Shown in pieces: positions 20,458 to 27,749 of a stretch of DNA of 33,980 nucleotides. The translations under genes and the position numbers were made by a program. Source of the DNA: a virus (taxonomy: Duplodnaviria > Heunggongvirae > Uroviricota > Caudoviricetes); the IMG/VR virus record IMGVR_UViG_2869970738_000009; one strand, written 5' to 3'. Position 1 is the first letter of the stretch; every line of letters begins with the position of its first letter. The notes below the pieces were generated by a model that was not told the DNA's origin, made no database searches, and saw nothing but the letters and a program-made list of their open reading frames with translations.

Positions 20458-21275
20458 AACTGGAAGATTTACCGAAATACTACTCCCCAAAATCCCCTAG
20501 CCTGACCGATGCATCGGCCTCAACGTCAAAAGATGCGCTGAGTATCACTGATGTGATGGCCGCGCAGGGCATGACACAGAATCGGGCTGAGATGGGGTTT
20601 TCTGCGTTCCTGGGGAAAATGGGCATCAGTATGAATGACAGGGCGCGGGCAACAGAATTACTGGCAGATTATGCACTCAGTCGGTGCGATCGTGTGGCGG
20701 CGTTGAGAAAACTTCCGGCAGAAATAAAACCGGTAGTGATGCGCATTATGGCTTCGTATGCGTTTGAAGATTATGCCCGTAGCGCGGCGAGCAAAAAACA
20801 GTGCCCCTGCTGTCACGGAAAAAAATTTATTGAAAGCGAGGTTTTTACAAACAAGATCCAGTATCCGGATGGTAAGCCACCAGTGTGGGCAAAGTGCACA
20901 AAAGGCGTGTATCCGTCTTACTGGGAAGAATGGAAAAAAGTCAGGGAGGTGGTAAAAGTTGCCTGTCCGGAGTGTGGCGGAAAGGGTGAGGTTTCCACCG
21001 CCTGTAAGGATTGCCGTGGGCGTGGTGTCGCCATTCATCGTGAAGAGTCGGTAAAACGTGGTATGCCTGTTATCAGAGACTGCCAGCGTTGTGGTGGTCG
21101 TGGCTGTGAAAGACTACCATCAACGGAGGCATTTAATGCCATATGCAAAGTGACGAGTGCTATCACGCTTGATACGTGGAAAAAATCAGTGAAACGCTTT
21201 TACGATACGTTGGTGGTTCGGTTTGACATTGAAGAGGCATGGGCGGAGCGGCAGTTAAAGAGGGTAACGCGATAG
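20454..21275 (+). CDS. late-gene antiterminator Q-like protein (QuuQ type) with four CxxC motifs
   Basis: Position immediately upstream of the PR'/tR'-like promoter and terminator; N-terminus MKLEDLPKYYSPKSPSLTDASAS resembles Q-like proteins as recalled. Confidence 0.55.
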   Translation: MKLEDLPKYYSPKSPSLTDASASTSKDALSITDVMAAQGMTQNRAEMGFSAFLGKMGISMNDRARATELLADYALSRCDRVAALRKLPAEIKPVVMRIMASYAFEDYARSAASKKQCPCCHGKKFIESEVFTNKIQYPDGKPPVWAKCTKGVYPSYWEEWKKVREVVKVACPECGGKGEVSTACKDCRGRGVAIHREESVKRGMPVIRDCQRCGGRGCERLPSTEAFNAICKVTSAITLDTWKKSVKRFYDTLVVRFDIEEAWAERQLKRVTR

Positions 21276-21379: not shown

Positions 21380-21501
21380 ATGACTGAAATCGCGTCAGTA
21401 CAGTAAACGCGCTGGTGGCGGTGAATACCTGTCTTTCAGCTTGCTGGCTTTTTCGACAAGAGTTATTGGTGTGTCACGTTAACCGGAAAAGGGAAAAAGA
21501 C

Positions 21502-21699
21502 ATGCTAAAACAGCAGGATATGACAGAAACCGCCAGAGTGGTGTTTAATGAATTAAGCGTTACCGAACCGGCGACAGTCGGGGAGATAGCGCAGAATACT
21601 TACCTTTCACGCGAACGCTGCCAGTTAATACTGACCCAGCTGGTTATGGCGGGTCTGGCAGACTATCAGTTCGGTTGTTACAGACGCCTTCCGCAGTGA
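21502..21699 (+). CDS. hypothetical small protein (66 aa)
   Basis: ORF from ATG 21502; weak Shine-Dalgarno. Confidence 0.35.
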   Translation: MLKQQDMTETARVVFNELSVTEPATVGEIAQNTYLSRERCQLILTQLVMAGLADYQFGCYRRLPQ

Positions 21700-21849: not shown

Positions 21850-22899
21850 ATGCTTAATACTGTGAAAATATCCAGTTGTGAGTTAATCAACGCCGACTGC
21901 CTGGAATTTATCCGGTCGTTACCCGAAAATTCTGTTGACCTGATAGTCACGGACCCGCCGTACTTTAAAGTGAAGCCTGAGGGCTGGGATAACCAGTGGA
22001 AGGGCGACGATGATTACCTGAAGTGGCTGGACCAGTGTCTGGCGCAGTTCTGGCGGGTGCTGAAACCTGCCGGAAGTCTTTACCTGTTCTGTGGTCATCG
22101 CCTGGCATCTGATATCGAAATCATGATGCGTGAACGCTTCAGTGTGCTGAACCATATTATCTGGGCGAAGCCTTCCGGACGCTGGAACGGGTGCAACAAG
22201 GAAAGCCTGCGGGCGTATTTCCCCGCCACAGAGCGCATTCTGTTCGCGGAACATTATCAGGGGCCGTATCGTCCGAAAGATGCCGGGTATGAGGCGAAGG
22301 GCAGGGCACTGAAACAGCATGTGATGGCCCCGCTGATTTCTTACTTTCGTGATGCATGCGCGGCCCTGGGGATAACGGCAAAACAGATTGCAGATGCCAC
22401 AGGAAAGAAAAACATGGTGTCGCACTGGTTCAGTGCCAGTCAGTGGCAGTTGCCGAACGAAAGCGATTATCTGAAATTACAGGCACTGTTTGCCAGGGTG
22501 GCAGAAGAGAAGCATCAGCGGGGGGAACTGGAAAAGCCCCACCACCAGCTGGTGGATACGTATACTTCACTGAACCGACAGTATGCGGAGCTGCAGAGTG
22601 AATATAAACATCTGCGGCGGTATTTTGGTGTGACGGCGCAGGTGCCGTACACGGATGTGTGGACACATAAACCGGTGCAGTTCTATCCCGGGAAACATCC
22701 GTGCGAAAAACCGGCAGAAATGCTGCAGCAGATAATCAGCGCAAGTAGTCGTCCTGGTGATCTGGTTGCGGATTTTTTCATGGGGTCGGGTTCAACGGTA
22801 AAAGCGGCACTGGCGCTCGGGCGTCGTGCGATTGGCGTTGAACTGGAGACAGGACGTTTTGAGCAGACAGTCAGGGAAGTTCAGGATTTAATCGTTTGA
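21850..22899 (+). CDS. orphan DNA methyltransferase (beta-class amino-methyltransferase, N6-adenine or N4-cytosine)
   Basis: Motif IV DPPY (LIVTDPPYF) precedes motif I FxGSGST (FFMGSGSTV) near the C-terminus; no adjacent restriction enzyme gene. Confidence 0.8.
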   Translation: MLNTVKISSCELINADCLEFIRSLPENSVDLIVTDPPYFKVKPEGWDNQWKGDDDYLKWLDQCLAQFWRVLKPAGSLYLFCGHRLASDIEIMMRERFSVLNHIIWAKPSGRWNGCNKESLRAYFPATERILFAEHYQGPYRPKDAGYEAKGRALKQHVMAPLISYFRDACAALGITAKQIADATGKKNMVSHWFSASQWQLPNESDYLKLQALFARVAEEKHQRGELEKPHHQLVDTYTSLNRQYAELQSEYKHLRRYFGVTAQVPYTDVWTHKPVQFYPGKHPCEKPAEMLQQIISASSRPGDLVADFFMGSGSTVKAALALGRRAIGVELETGRFEQTVREVQDLIV

Positions 22900-22948
22900 A
22901 ACGGATGAGATTGCAGAATTAATTACGCACCATTATTATTCTGCTCCC

Positions 22949-23021
22949 GGCCCTTTAGCTCAGTGGTGAGAGCGAGCGACTCATAATCGCCAGGTCGCTG
23001 GTTCAAATCCAGCAAGGGCCA
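22949..23021 (+). tRNA. ileZ: tRNA with CAU anticodon, ileX/ileZ-like (tRNA-Ile2; Met not excluded)
   Basis: Cloverleaf GGCCCTT-TA-GCTC...GAGC; anticodon loop CTCATAA; T arm GCTGG-TTCAAAT-CCAGC; acceptor closes AAGGGCC; CCA not encoded. Confidence 0.75.
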
Positions 23022-23031
23022 CTATCACATA

Positions 23032-23105
23032 CCGCCATTAGCTCATCAGGAAAGAGCGCCAGCCTTCGAAGCTGGTTGCGCGGAGTTCGGGTCCCCGAAG
23101 GCGGT
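23032..23105 (+). tRNA. tRNA-Arg-like (anticodon UCG), noncanonical T loop; may be degenerate
   Basis: Anticodon arm CCAGC-CTTCGAA-GCTGG is clean; T loop TTCGGGT and one mismatch each in the T and acceptor stems. Confidence 0.45.
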
Positions 23106-23121
23106 TCATTATCTGTATCCT

Positions 23122-23198
23122 GCGTTGTTAGCTCAGCCGGACAGAGCAATTGCCTTCTAAGCAATCGGTCACTGGTTCGAATACAGTAGAACGCGCCA
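23122..23198 (+). tRNA. tRNA-Arg (anticodon UCU), CCA encoded
   Basis: GCGTTGT-TA-GCTC...; anticodon loop CTTCTAA; T loop TTCGAAT; acceptor and T stems have one mismatch each. Confidence 0.65.
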
Positions 23199-23212
23199 CA
23201 CTTATTTTCCCT

Positions 23213-23237
23213 GGCTCGCTTTTGCGGGCTTTTTTTT
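23213..23237 (+). terminator. rho-independent terminator after the tRNA cluster
   Basis: Stem GGCTCGC/GCGGGCT (two G-U pairs), loop TTTT, then T7 run. Confidence 0.55.
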
Positions 23238-23365
23238 AAATGTCTCACAATTCAGGCGGTTGACTGTTGTCTGGTTTGCGGGGAGTTTGTTAAAAGAAAC
23301 TGGCATGGTGAATCCCCCTGTGCGGAGGGGCAATCAGCGAGTAGGTATATGGGATAATCGCAGAT

Positions 23366-23463
23366 TCAGGTGCTGGTACTGAATTCACCGGGAGGCACCC
23401 GGCACCATGCAATGGCACATAGCGCCACTCTCCAGCCCCTCTCCGGAGGGGCTGTTTATATTG
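23366..23463 (+). ncRNA. putative small structured RNA (about 100 nt) ending in a strong intrinsic terminator
   Basis: Extended -10 TGGGATAAT at 23350-23358; hairpins at 23389-23403 and 23433-23454 (9-bp GC stem) followed by a U-rich tract. Confidence 0.2.
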
Positions 23464-23488
23464 ATTTTGTCAGATGTGAGTAAACTCC

Positions 23489-23824
23489 TTATGGACTTTG
23501 TTGTTTTAGCCCATAAGGACATATTTGCAGAGTGCAACGGTTATTAAAGCATTCATTCAATACGTTATCTGTATTTGTAGGGCATTCCTGGCTGTTTTTG
23601 ATTAAATTCCAGAATGTTTTATTGAATGGTACTACGTTGTAAATGGTTACAGGTAGCACTTTGTTATTGAGCATGATGCCTGTGTGAGTCAGTGTAAATA
23701 TACTTTCAGGAGGTAAGAAAGCATCCGATTGATACCAGATTATTAATTTTATTTTACTCCATATGACTGAAAAAGATATTCCGCATGATGGCTGGATAAC
23801 TGTATCAATCACAATCCACTTCAT
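23489..23824 (-). CDS. hypothetical 111-aa protein in an AT-rich cargo segment at the position where Stx phages carry stxAB
   Basis: ORF of 111 codons from ATG 23822-23824 with AAGGA Shine-Dalgarno; open frame of this length in AT-rich DNA is unlikely by chance; no recognised motif. Confidence 0.4.
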
Positions 23825-24069
23825 TTGGTTTCCTTGTTTATGCATTGCTGGTGATGTTCTGAAAAGTATAAATGATATTTTTGAATGTAAACCATAGAGC
23901 AGAATTATTTTTCTGATGTTGTTTATTGTTTATTTAAATGCAGGGTGGTTTATATCTCGTCTTGTAGTTTATCCATGCATATCTGCTTGATGATGAGGTT
24001 TTTATTTAAGGTATGGTTTTGTGTTTTTTCTGTATTACATGTCAGGTATTTTAAAGAATCATTTTTCAG

Positions 24070-25950
24070 ATGGTGGAAAGAACCATGGCATTTAAACACT
24101 ATGATGTTGTCAGGGCGGCGTCGCCGTCAGATCTTGCGGAAAAGCTGACACATAAACTGAAAGAGGGCTGGCAGCCGTTTGGTAGTCCGGTGGCCATAAC
24201 CCCTTATACTCTGATGCAGGCGATTGCAGCAGAAGGTGCAGTAATCAGCGCCACCAGCAACCCGGAGTATTACTTTGTTGTGGTTCTGGCAGGGCAGTCA
24301 AACGGCATGTCGTATGGTGAAGGCCTTCCGCTGCCGGGGACATATGACCGTCCGGACCCGCGTATTAAGCAACTGGCGCGTCGCAGTACGGTGACACCGG
24401 GCGGTGCAGCATGCAAATATAACGACATCATTCCGGCGGACCATTGTCTGCATGATGTGCAGGACATGAGCCGTCTTAACCATCCGAAAGCGGACCTGTC
24501 AAAGGGGCAGTACGGAACCGTGGGGCAGGGGCTGCATATCGCCAAAAAACTGCTGCCGTTTATACCGGCGAATGCGGGCATTCTGCTGGTTCCGTGCTGT
24601 CGTGGTGGTTCAGCGTTCACCACCGGAGCTGATGGCACATACAGTGACGCGAGTGGTGCCTCGGAGAATTCAACCCGCTGGGGTGTGGACAAGCCGCTGT
24701 ATAAGGACCTTATCGGTCGAACAAAAGCGGCACTGGAGAAGAACCCGAAAAATGTGCTGTTTGCCGTGGTGTGGATGCAGGGGGAATTTGATTTTGGCGG
24801 TACGCCGGCAAATCATGCCGCACAGTTTGGTGCGCTGGTTGATAAATTCCGTGCAGACCTGGCGGATATGGCAGGCCAGTGCGTCGGTGGCTCTGCTGGC
24901 GGTGTTCCCTGGATATGCGGGGACACGACGTATTTCTGGAAGCAGAAGAACGAATCCACGTACCAGACGGTGTACGGCAGCTATAAAAATAAAACGGAAA
25001 AGAATATCCATTTCGTACCGTTCATGACCGATGAGAACGGGGTGAATGTGCCGACGAACAAACCGGAAGAAGACCCGGACATTCCGGGTATCGGTTATTA
25101 CGGTTCGAAATGGCGTGACAGCTCAGCCACCTGGACGTCACAGGACAGGGCGAGCCATTTCAGTTCATGGGCTCGCCGTGGGATTATTTCCGACCGTCTG
25201 GCAACGGCGATTCTGAGCTGCGCGGGTAAGTCTTCTGCGTTTGTTAATGGTACTGCCGGGGTGGTTGTTCCAGACAGGCCGGTTACCACCTCAGAGTCTG
25301 TAATTTTTTACGATGCCAAAAAAGCTACAGACAATCAGCTGAAACCTTATGGCTGGGACGGTATGTATGGCAGACGCACACTGGTTGATGACAGCGGCAA
25401 TAAAGCTCTGCGAATTGAGAAAAATAACAGCGCGAAATCCTGGTCAATGTACTGTGATATTGCTGCAGACAAGGCAAAACTTTTACTGGAAAAAGGCGGG
25501 GAAATTGCTGTCCGGTTTAAAATCCCCGAAAACGTCAATCTTGAGACAACCAGAAACAAGTATGCCTTTGGTTTGTACTGGCGAATAGCGGAATGGCCGG
25601 GTGAGGGTGGTGAAGGCCATCTGAGTTCTTTCTTTGTCCAGACAGATAAAGCCAGTATTAATATTGCATACCATCATACAGTTAATCAACAAAAAGAACT
25701 TGGCACGTTTGGCGCATTCGACCATGACTGGCATACGCTTGCATTTAAATTTAAGGGCAGTAACAGCATTAATGTTACTCCGGTGCTTGATGGTGTGGAT
25801 GGACAGGCGTTTGACCTGGTGAAATGGGCCAATACTGCTAATGGACTCAACAGGTTTGTCATTACGGATATTACAGGTAGTGCAGAAACCTACCCTGTAC
25901 TTATTGATACGGTGGAAGTTAAAGCAAACAAAGCTGGAGCAGCCGCATAA
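24070..25950 (+). CDS. nanS: NanS-type sialate O-acetylesterase (phage nanS-p-like; DUF1737 N-domain plus SASA/SGNH esterase domain)
   Basis: GQSN esterase motif (VVLAGQSNGMSYGEG); N-terminus MAFKHYDVVRAASPSDLAEKL typical of DUF1737; start is either ATG 24070 or ATG 24085. Confidence 0.75.
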   Translation: MVERTMAFKHYDVVRAASPSDLAEKLTHKLKEGWQPFGSPVAITPYTLMQAIAAEGAVISATSNPEYYFVVVLAGQSNGMSYGEGLPLPGTYDRPDPRIKQLARRSTVTPGGAACKYNDIIPADHCLHDVQDMSRLNHPKADLSKGQYGTVGQGLHIAKKLLPFIPANAGILLVPCCRGGSAFTTGADGTYSDASGASENSTRWGVDKPLYKDLIGRTKAALEKNPKNVLFAVVWMQGEFDFGGTPANHAAQFGALVDKFRADLADMAGQCVGGSAGGVPWICGDTTYFWKQKNESTYQTVYGSYKNKTEKNIHFVPFMTDENGVNVPTNKPEEDPDIPGIGYYGSKWRDSSATWTSQDRASHFSSWARRGIISDRLATAILSCAGKSSAFVNGTAGVVVPDRPVTTSESVIFYDAKKATDNQLKPYGWDGMYGRRTLVDDSGNKALRIEKNNSAKSWSMYCDIAADKAKLLLEKGGEIAVRFKIPENVNLETTRNKYAFGLYWRIAEWPGEGGEGHLSSFFVQTDKASINIAYHHTVNQQKELGTFGAFDHDWHTLAFKFKGSNSINVTPVLDGVDGQAFDLVKWANTANGLNRFVITDITGSAETYPVLIDTVEVKANKAGAAA

Positions 25951-26524: not shown

Positions 26525-26600
26525 GCATGCGCAAGGGACCATCGGTGTGTGCCGGTGGTCTTTATATTGTTGTGAGCTTCCGGATTGCGGGAGACGGGGT

Positions 26601-26816
26601 ATGTACCAGATGGAAAAAATCACAACAGGTGTGTCATACACCACGTCAGCGGTGGGAACGGGCTACTGGTTCCTGCAGTTGCTGGACAGGGTTTCCCCGT
26701 CTCAGTGGGCGGCAATAGGCGTGCTGGGGAGTCTGTTGTTTGGGCTGCTGACATATCTGACTAACCTGTATTTCAAAATCAGAGAGGACCGTCGTAAGGC
26801 GGCGCGGGGAGAGTAA
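26601..26816 (+). CDS. S: class II holin, phage 21 S-like (pinholin), dual-start motif MYQM
   Basis: [68 protein letters not shown] matches S21-type holins as recalled. Confidence 0.75.
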
Positions 26817-27215: not shown

Positions 27216-27749
27216 ATGAACACCAAAATCAAATACGGCCTGTCGGCTGCCGTTCTGGCGCTGATTGCCGCAGGTGCGCCTGCGCCTGAAATCCTCGACC
27301 AGTTTCTGGATGAAAAGGAAGGTAACCACACCACGGCATACCGTGATGGCGCGGGTATCTGGACCATCTGCCGCGGTGCCATCCTGGTGGATAGTAAACC
27401 TGTCGTCCCGGGCATGAAGTTGTCGAAGGAAAAATGCGACCAGGTCAACGCCATTGAGCGTGATAAGGCGCTGGCATGGGTGGAGCGCAATATTAAAGTG
27501 CCGCTGACCGAACCCCAGAAAGCGGGTATCGCGTCATTTTGTCCCTATAACATTGGCCCCGGTAAGTGTTTCCCGTCGACGTTTTACAGACGGATTAATG
27601 CTGGTGACCGCAGGGGAGCATGCGAAGCGATTCGCTGGTGGATTAAGGACGGTGGCAGAGACTGCCGTATCCGCTCAAATAATTGCTACGGTCAGGTATC
27701 CCGGCGAGACCAGGAAAGTGCGCTGGCGTGCTGGGACATCGACAGATAA
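27216..27749 (+). CDS. R: SAR endolysin (T4-type lysozyme fold with N-terminal signal-anchor-release domain)
   Basis: Gly/Ala-rich weakly hydrophobic N-terminus followed by the catalytic E-D-T triad region (EKEGNHTTAYRDGAGIWTICRG). Confidence 0.8.
   Translation: MNTKIKYGLSAAVLALIAAGAPAPEILDQFLDEKEGNHTTAYRDGAGIWTICRGAILVDSKPVVPGMKLSKEKCDQVNAIERDKALAWVERNIKVPLTEPQKAGIASFCPYNIGPGKCFPSTFYRRINAGDRRGACEAIRWWIKDGGRDCRIRSNNCYGQVSRRDQESALACWDIDR

Follow-up and report, generated by a model that had tools for sequence, protein, structure and literature searches.

The 33,980-nt stretch of Caudoviricetes DNA considered here (IMG/VR record IMGVR_UViG_2869970738_000009; "the window" throughout, to whose full length all coordinates refer) contains, in the interval between three tRNA genes and the prophage sialate O-acetylesterase gene nanS-p, a 111-aa open reading frame (ORF) on the strand opposite to the late genes. 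Our analysis identifies this ORF, at 23489-23824, as iraL, a prophage-borne paralogue of iraM whose product stabilises RpoS (sigma-S) by way of the adaptor RssB, and which forms the self-contained gene of a cassette of its own. We hold this reading with a probability of about 0.93. The order of the interval is tRNAs, slot A (which holds stx in Shiga toxin (Stx) phages and is empty here), a small RNA (sRNA) gene of the STnc100 family, slot B (which holds iraL here and AsxR in phage 933W) and nanS-p. Its features are given below; positions preceded by L007, L009, L010 and L011 are those of the loci of 933W, phage 640R1, phage 1717 and Stx2_EH2201, respectively.

22949-23022, plus strand: tRNA gene with CAT anticodon, ileZ-type (ARAGORN; Rfam tRNA model, 72.5 bits; tRNA-Ile in homologous loci according to the Prokaryotic Genome Annotation Pipeline, PGAP)
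23031-23107, plus strand: tRNA-Arg (TCG) gene, argN-type (ARAGORN, Rfam)
23122-23198, plus strand: tRNA-Arg (TCT) gene, argO-type (ARAGORN, Rfam)
23213-23230, plus strand: terminator-like hairpin with a T-run, homologous to the 'possible rho-independent terminator upstream of the stx genes' of 933W (L007 3386-3409)
23236-23241, no strand: empty toxin junction, slot A (blastn break points against 933W and Stx2_EH2201; annotations)
23274-23463, plus strand: predicted STnc100-family sRNA gene (Rfam RF02076, full length)
23454-24083, minus strand: iraL cassette, slot B, 630 bp (homology break points 23453 and 24084; GC content 0.327)
23489-23824, minus strand: iraL coding sequence, encoding a 111-aa IraM-family anti-adaptor of RssB (identity to CFT073 IraL; NF007393; 8TWD)
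23831-23835, minus strand: Shine-Dalgarno sequence AAGGA, 6 nt upstream of the ATG at 23824 (sequence reading)
23844, minus strand: single-nucleotide polymorphism (SNP) in the 5' untranslated region (UTR) of iraL, T on the iraL strand (comparison with four loci)
23857, minus strand: iraL transcription start (homology to the end mapped in CFT073 by 5' RACE, rapid amplification of cDNA ends)
23865-23870 and 23886-23891, minus strand: putative sigma-70 promoter, -10 TATACT and -35 TTTACA with a 15-nt spacer (sequence reading)
24085-25950, plus strand: nanS-p, 621 aa (Pfam DUF1737, SASA and DUF6645; Stx-phage homology)

An earlier reading of this DNA from its letters and ORF list (the original prediction) had described three tRNAs followed by an AT-rich block with a reverse-strand ORF ahead of nanS-p, and ARAGORN, the ORF list and the base composition bear out this layout, as they do the 111-aa frame with its AAGGA. 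Its description of the whole interval of about 850 bp as AT-rich is correct for 23454-24083 but not for 23238-23453, where the GC content is 0.546 (0.499 for the whole window). It had also taken the ORF for the only feature of the interval and so overlooked the full-length STnc100 gene on the plus strand. The first late-operon gene past the iraL cassette is nanS-p, and we place its start at the ATG at 24085, not at the ATG at 24070; homology to the nanS-p/yjhS genes of Stx phages resumes at 24084.

The identity of the ORF is carried by its protein. All 111 residues are the same as those of IraL from the uropathogenic E. coli strain CFT073, where the protein was described as a paralogue of IraM (Hryckowian et al. 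2014, mBio, PMC4045071), and both correspond to RefSeq protein WP_000871291.1. At the nucleotide level, 23233-24238 is 98.6% identical to the potB-island prophage of CFT073; matches to iraL have been reported at 95% identity or more over the coding region (PMC4045071). The NCBIfam model NF007393, 'anti-adapter protein IraM', gives 161.7 bits, above its curated cutoff of 121, over profile positions 1-113 of 114. Residues 1-78 align end to end and without gaps with IraM in chain A of PDB entry 8TWD (phmmer, E 9.1e-32), an alignment that makes the N-terminal domain a predicted homologue of the solved IraM beta-barrel, which has a PmrD-like fold. IraM of K-12 (b1160) is 61.7% identical to the ORF over 107 ungapped residues, consistent with the published figure of 58.9% for IraL and IraM (PMC4045071). 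Scans against the phage families and Pfam were less informative: PHROGs gave only the unnamed family phrog_4407, and Pfam gave no family for the 111-aa ORF even at E 10.

Because the protein is fully identical to a characterised one and passes the cutoff of a curated hidden Markov model (HMM), the ORF is a real gene and not a chance frame, as the original prediction had argued. Its further view, that the protein was uncharacterised and carried no recognisable motif, does not survive the IraL identity, the NF007393 match and the alignment to 8TWD: protein and HMM searches return a strong match to a well-characterised family. The gene iraL is already characterised, published and routinely annotated; PGAP labels it IraM.

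The start of the transcript can also be placed. The 32-nt 5' RACE sequence of the iraL mRNA from the CFT073 study (PMC4045071) agrees with the minus strand over 23857-23826 in 31 of its 32 bases; by chance, 0 such matches are expected. The sole mismatch is 23844, which lies inside the 33-nt 5' UTR and is private to the window among the five loci compared: the iraL strand reads T here and G in CFT073, TOE17, STEC388 and phage 640R1. This SNP makes an upstream in-frame ATG, from which the reverse-strand frame runs over 23489-23845 and counts 118 aa in the ORF list, compared with 111 aa from the ATG at 23824. We rejected the 118-aa frame, whose ATG stands at +13 of the mapped mRNA, has no Shine-Dalgarno sequence and stems from the window-private SNP. 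The upstream start is probably not used, and since it arises from that private SNP we take the 111-aa frame, with a 33-nt leader, as the gene. From promoter to start codon 77 of 79 bases are the same as in CFT073, where the promoter and 5' UTR were found to be at least 96% identical among strains with iraL (PMC4045071), and both the -10 and the -35 hexamers are unchanged. That paper reports sigma-70-like -10 and -35 elements for iraL. The idea in the original prediction that expression would be uncoupled from the late transcript was thus right in kind, as the gene is antisense to that transcript and has its own promoter and a published start.

How IraL would act follows a simple scheme. In the lysogen iraL would be transcribed from its own sigma-70-type promoter, starting at 23857 on the minus strand and running against the Q-dependent late operon. 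The 111-aa product would bind the N-terminal receiver domain of RssB, and RssB bound in this way would be unable to pass RpoS to the ClpXP protease. During exponential growth RpoS would then be stabilised and the general stress response raised. The published work on IraL agrees with each part of the scheme that it covers. [quoted passage not shown] Placed on its native promoter in K-12, the gene raises sigma-S. IraL was co-purified with RssB, and two-hybrid assays showed it to bind the N-terminal domain alone, unlike IraM, which binds both domains. Those experiments were carried out with an identical protein, and a cassette 98.6% identical to that of the window, in CFT073, and the same mechanism may well operate in the present host.

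The contact surface can be compared residue by residue, as the paper on the IraM-RssB crystal structure (PMC10844676) lists three clusters of contact residues. Cluster I of IraM (I4, I6, W22, K26 and I42), facing RssB's N-terminal domain, is kept in the window's IraL at 5 of 5 positions. Clusters II and III, facing the C-terminal domain and the linker, are identical at 5 of 9 positions, the changes being T13S, L75I, H63N and I64V. We infer that IraL would contact the alpha4-beta5-alpha5 face of RssB through the five conserved residues of cluster I. The combination of a kept cluster I with altered clusters II and III would fit binding to the N-terminal domain only, if these substitutions do bear on the binding mode. 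The C-terminal tail (residues 81-111, 23489-23584) has four cysteines in the pattern CX10CX4CX4C (C81, C92, C97 and C102), which occupy the same positions in IraL, K-12 IraM and the allele of Stx phages described below. The IraM crystal structure was obtained with this cysteine tail removed, and the text of PMC10844676 mentions neither zinc nor cysteine; a metal or disulfide role for these residues is conceivable.

Several points weigh against the identification or its extension to this prophage. The experiments on function concern CFT073 IraL, and it is only by inference that we carry them over to this host and prophage; RssB is encoded outside the window, and its presence in the host is assumed. 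The pair of hexamers assigned as -10 and -35 has a short spacer of 15 nt, and the published iraL promoter was missed by a generic promoter scan. The two other minus-strand sites returned by that scan, 23932-23904 and 23773-23746, are at or below shuffle expectation. Near the transcription start the window departs from CFT073 at two bases, 23844 and one lying 2 nt upstream of the start. Finally, no convincing intrinsic terminator was seen on the minus strand past the iraL stop, where the only hairpin is the STnc100 terminator read in reverse, with no U-tract. Because no terminator with a U-tract is visible for iraL, its mRNA may run antisense into the STnc100 gene. The 3' end of the STnc100 match and the iraL stop on the opposite strand are separated by 25 bp (23464-23488).

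Could the gene instead do the work of K-12 IraM, as its PGAP label would imply, responding through PhoP/PhoQ to Mg2+ starvation and clamping both RssB domains together with the linker in the manner of the IraM-RssB crystal structure? Shared membership of the curated family NF007393, the 62% ungapped identity and the wholly conserved cluster I would all suit such a role. A search for the PhoP box (KGTTTA-N5-KGTTTA, one mismatch allowed) found a single site in the window, the direct repeat TGTTTATTGTTTATTTA at 23920-23936 on the plus strand, some 63-79 bp upstream of the iraL transcription start. We regard this PhoP-box-like repeat as a weak lead, since matches of this kind are no commoner than chance would give (0.5 expected per window; 38 of 100 shuffles contain at least one). 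Against an IraM-like role, the nucleotide homology of K-12 iraM to the window does not extend past the coding region (23505-23827, 71%), the upstream DNA being unalignable. The regulatory region is therefore not shared, which would be consistent with different regulation. The published comparison points the same way: Mg2+ starvation induces K-12 IraM, which binds both domains of RssB, while IraL is made by unstressed cells in log phase and its binding is limited to the N-terminal domain. Four of the nine residues in clusters II and III are changed as well. Taken together, these observations make equivalence to IraM quite unlikely.

Still less probable, in our judgement, is that the gene is a silent or decaying remnant, unexpressed here owing, for example, to silencing by H-NS or to window-specific SNPs. 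The low GC content of the cassette (0.33) is typical of xenogeneic DNA, the private SNP at 23844 adds an upstream ATG to the 5' UTR, and point mutations in the promoter have been noted in some strains (PMC4045071). However, the coding sequence is 100% conserved at the protein level and the -10 and -35 hexamers are those of CFT073, where the promoter is active; it is on these two grounds that we consider a remnant unlikely. The cassette is also widespread: more than a quarter of complete E. coli genomes retain it at no less than 95% identity. The 901-bp segment 23200-24100 is found in at least 1,430 of 5,426 such genomes at a coverage of at least 80%, and PGAP again labels its gene IraM.

Having identified iraL, we turn to its position relative to the toxin genes. 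In both 933W and Stx2_EH2201 stxAB is located between the tRNAs and nanS-p, as the original prediction had stated of Stx phages. Alignment to these prophages resolves the interval more finely. The window from 22900 to 23236, with the tRNAs and the terminator that precedes stx, aligns with L007 3072-3409 of 933W at 91%. Next comes the junction 23236|23241, which is the site of stx2AB in 933W (L007 3463-4703), absent from the window. Beyond it, 23241-23331 and 23381-23411 match L007 4745-4926, downstream of stx2B, and the window from 24084 onward matches L007 from 5189 onward, that is, nanS-p from its start codon. The stx2AB genes of Stx2_EH2201 are inserted exactly at 23236|23241 too. CFT073 has, between the positions that match 23210 and 23233 of the window, about 640 bp of unrelated DNA that includes a DUF3927 ORF. 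The iraL cassette, bounded by the break points 23453 and 24084, begins about 215 bp past the toxin junction, on the far side of STnc100.

The STnc100 match at 23274-23463 scores 126.9 bits against a gathering threshold of 47 (E 2.3e-28) and covers model positions 1-206 of 206, so that by covariance-model prediction this is a full-length gene of the family. Its 3' end is the terminator hairpin 23433-23454. The family has members in the syntenic position of 933W, the Stx1 phage AP005153, 1717, Stx2_EH2201, CFT073 and phage 640R1; they are located downstream of stx2B (933W) or stx1B (AP005153), and upstream of iraL in CFT073. In a 2026 preprint STnc100 and a relative, PasD, are both described as prophage sRNAs, and pasD is placed directly upstream of the sialate esterase gene. 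In homologous loci PGAP annotates a truncated pseudogene, 'hypothetical protein', on the strand opposite STnc100 (for example L001 6095-6220). The region from the tRNAs to iraL is itself variable: the iraL-carrying phage vB_EcoS-640R1 has two tandem STnc100 copies upstream of iraL (L009 4562-4755 and 5031-5219), with small ORFs between them.

Slot B has other occupants. In 933W, in the Stx1 phage AP005153 and in the stx-negative PPwrbA_EH2201 it holds an unrelated segment of normal GC content, about 232-263 bp long. In 933W this segment encodes the anti-sRNA AsxR at L007 4985-5037 on the minus strand (Rfam RF02703, 88 bits); the Rfam scan of the window gave no match to AsxR.

Some Stx phages carry a relative of iraL. 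A tblastn search found a gene of the IraM family in 46 phage records. The IraL allele accounts for four, all stx-negative, and a diverged allele (72-74% identity) for 41, which are mostly Stx2c-, Stx2- or Stx2a-converting. The diverged allele encodes 107 aa in phage 1717 (gp43, L010 5001-5324) and in Stx2_EH2201 (annotated 'iraM', L011 5001-5324), directly after stx2B and between STnc100 and nanS-p. In these two phages the order is Q, stx2A, stx2B, STnc100, ira on the opposite strand and nanS-p, and Stx2_EH2201 has a methylase gene and three tRNAs between Q and stx2A. The window from 23241 to 24238 aligns contiguously with this ira region at 70% nucleotide identity, stx2AB falling exactly into the gap at 23236|23241. 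At the protein level IraL is 74.8% identical to the Stx-phage allele and 61.7% to K-12 IraM, and K-12 IraM is 65.4% identical to the Stx-phage allele. Judged by this alignment, the window looks like the late region of an Stx2 phage from which the toxin operon is missing, with the IraL allele in place.

Since stx2 and an IraM-family allele share the same Stx2 phages and stx2AB falls at 23236|23241, toxin and anti-adaptor are neighbours and not alternatives. We had considered mutual exclusion of stx and iraL, and rejected it for the family as a whole, since the diverged allele adjoins stx2 in 41 phage records. A megablast search with chimeric queries, in which the iraL cassette was fused to stx2B or stx1B, showed the two to be adjacent in 0 of 5,426 complete E. 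coli genomes, and at megablast sensitivity exclusion thus holds for the IraL allele only.

The proposal that stxAB had given way in the toxin slot to an AT-rich segment bringing in an uncharacterised gene for lysogenic conversion or anti-phage defence, which drew on the place of the gene within the interval that holds stx in Stx phages, on its AT-richness, reverse orientation and want of a Pfam match, and to which the 0 of 5,426 genomes with stx1B or stx2B beside the exact IraL-allele cassette might be added, is already refuted on position and identity and keeps hardly any probability, as stx2AB maps to 23236|23241 and not to the cassette, Stx2c and Stx2a phages hold stx2 together with an IraM-family allele in the syntenic slot, and the protein is identical to the characterised IraL. 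What stands of the original prediction here is that the gene is accessory cargo, which by published work stabilises host RpoS. Its suggestion of a defence function was dropped because PADLOC found nothing (0 families of PADLOC-DB at E up to 1).

With iraL so placed, the tRNA-to-nanS-p interval comprises two separate cargo positions with a conserved sRNA gene between them, of which the toxin position is empty and the anti-adaptor position filled here. Because the anti-adaptor slot can coexist with stx in Stx2c and Stx2a phages, one phage is able to deliver an RpoS-stabilising cargo as well as a toxin cargo. The allele that travels with stx2c and stx2a appears to be unstudied: in the library searched, no paper devoted to IraM in Stx phages came up. 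The IraM-family locus comprises at least three diverged alleles within the order tRNAs, stx where present, STnc100, ira and nanS-p. The position of iraL antisense to the late transcript, together with its convergence on the STnc100 terminator, could cause IraL output and RpoS stability to fall on induction, and transcriptional interference or antisense pairing could be the route. As a joint proposal, we might picture the IraM-family locus as an old syntenic component flanking stx, the Stx-phage allele as a further anti-adaptor and induction as lowering IraL. We consider this conjunction speculative and, as a whole, rather improbable. If it were true, the Stx-phage allele would link carriage of an Stx prophage to RpoS stabilisation in O157.

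The genes on either side of the interval complete the late region. The original prediction had recognised its synteny as that of Stx-converting phages, and Pfam confirms the following members in addition to nanS-p, with a DUF1327 gene also among the flanking late genes.

20454-21275: Q antiterminator (Pfam PF03589)
21850-22899: N6/N4 DNA methylase (Pfam)
26547-26816: P21-type holin (Pfam)
27216-27749: lysozyme (Pfam)

A 94-aa ORF without a Pfam family is present in addition at 21415-21699 on the plus strand; it falls between Q and the methylase, in the part of the late region expected to hold the late promoter and terminator.

The closest known system is the late region of the CFT073 prophage, which like the window has Q (273 aa), three tRNAs, STnc100, iraL, nanS-p, holin, DUF1327/YdfR and lysozyme. 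The two differ in nanS-p, which is an intact gene of 621 aa in the window and a truncated remnant in CFT073, and in the DNA methylase, which stands where CFT073 has IS200C. The window also lacks the DUF3927 segment that CFT073 has between the tRNAs and STnc100, and differs in the two SNPs near the iraL transcription start, one of which makes the spurious 118-aa frame. K-12 IraM is more distant. It resembles IraL in belonging to NF007393, in having five cysteines at the same positions and in being encoded by an AT-rich gene, but K-12 iraM adjoins the e14 element, whereas iraL lies in a late region. The Stx-phage allele, as seen in 1717 gp43, phage 2851 and Stx2_EH2201, has the slot and orientation of iraL and a -10-like element at the corresponding place; unlike IraL, its product has 107 aa instead of 111 and two extra cysteines, and stx2AB is found alongside it in the same phage. 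The AsxR segment of 933W is likewise situated between STnc100 and the start of nanS-p on the strand opposite to the late operon. It encodes a 53-nt sRNA within about 260 bp of GC-normal DNA, in contrast to the protein-coding, AT-rich iraL cassette.

The stxAB operon of Stx phages, finally, is comparable to iraL in being accessory cargo carried between the tRNAs and nanS-p in a late region of the same architecture. On induction the operon is co-transcribed with the late genes. Whereas stxAB occupies slot A on the strand of the late operon, iraL occupies slot B on the opposite strand, under a promoter of its own that would be active in the uninduced lysogen.

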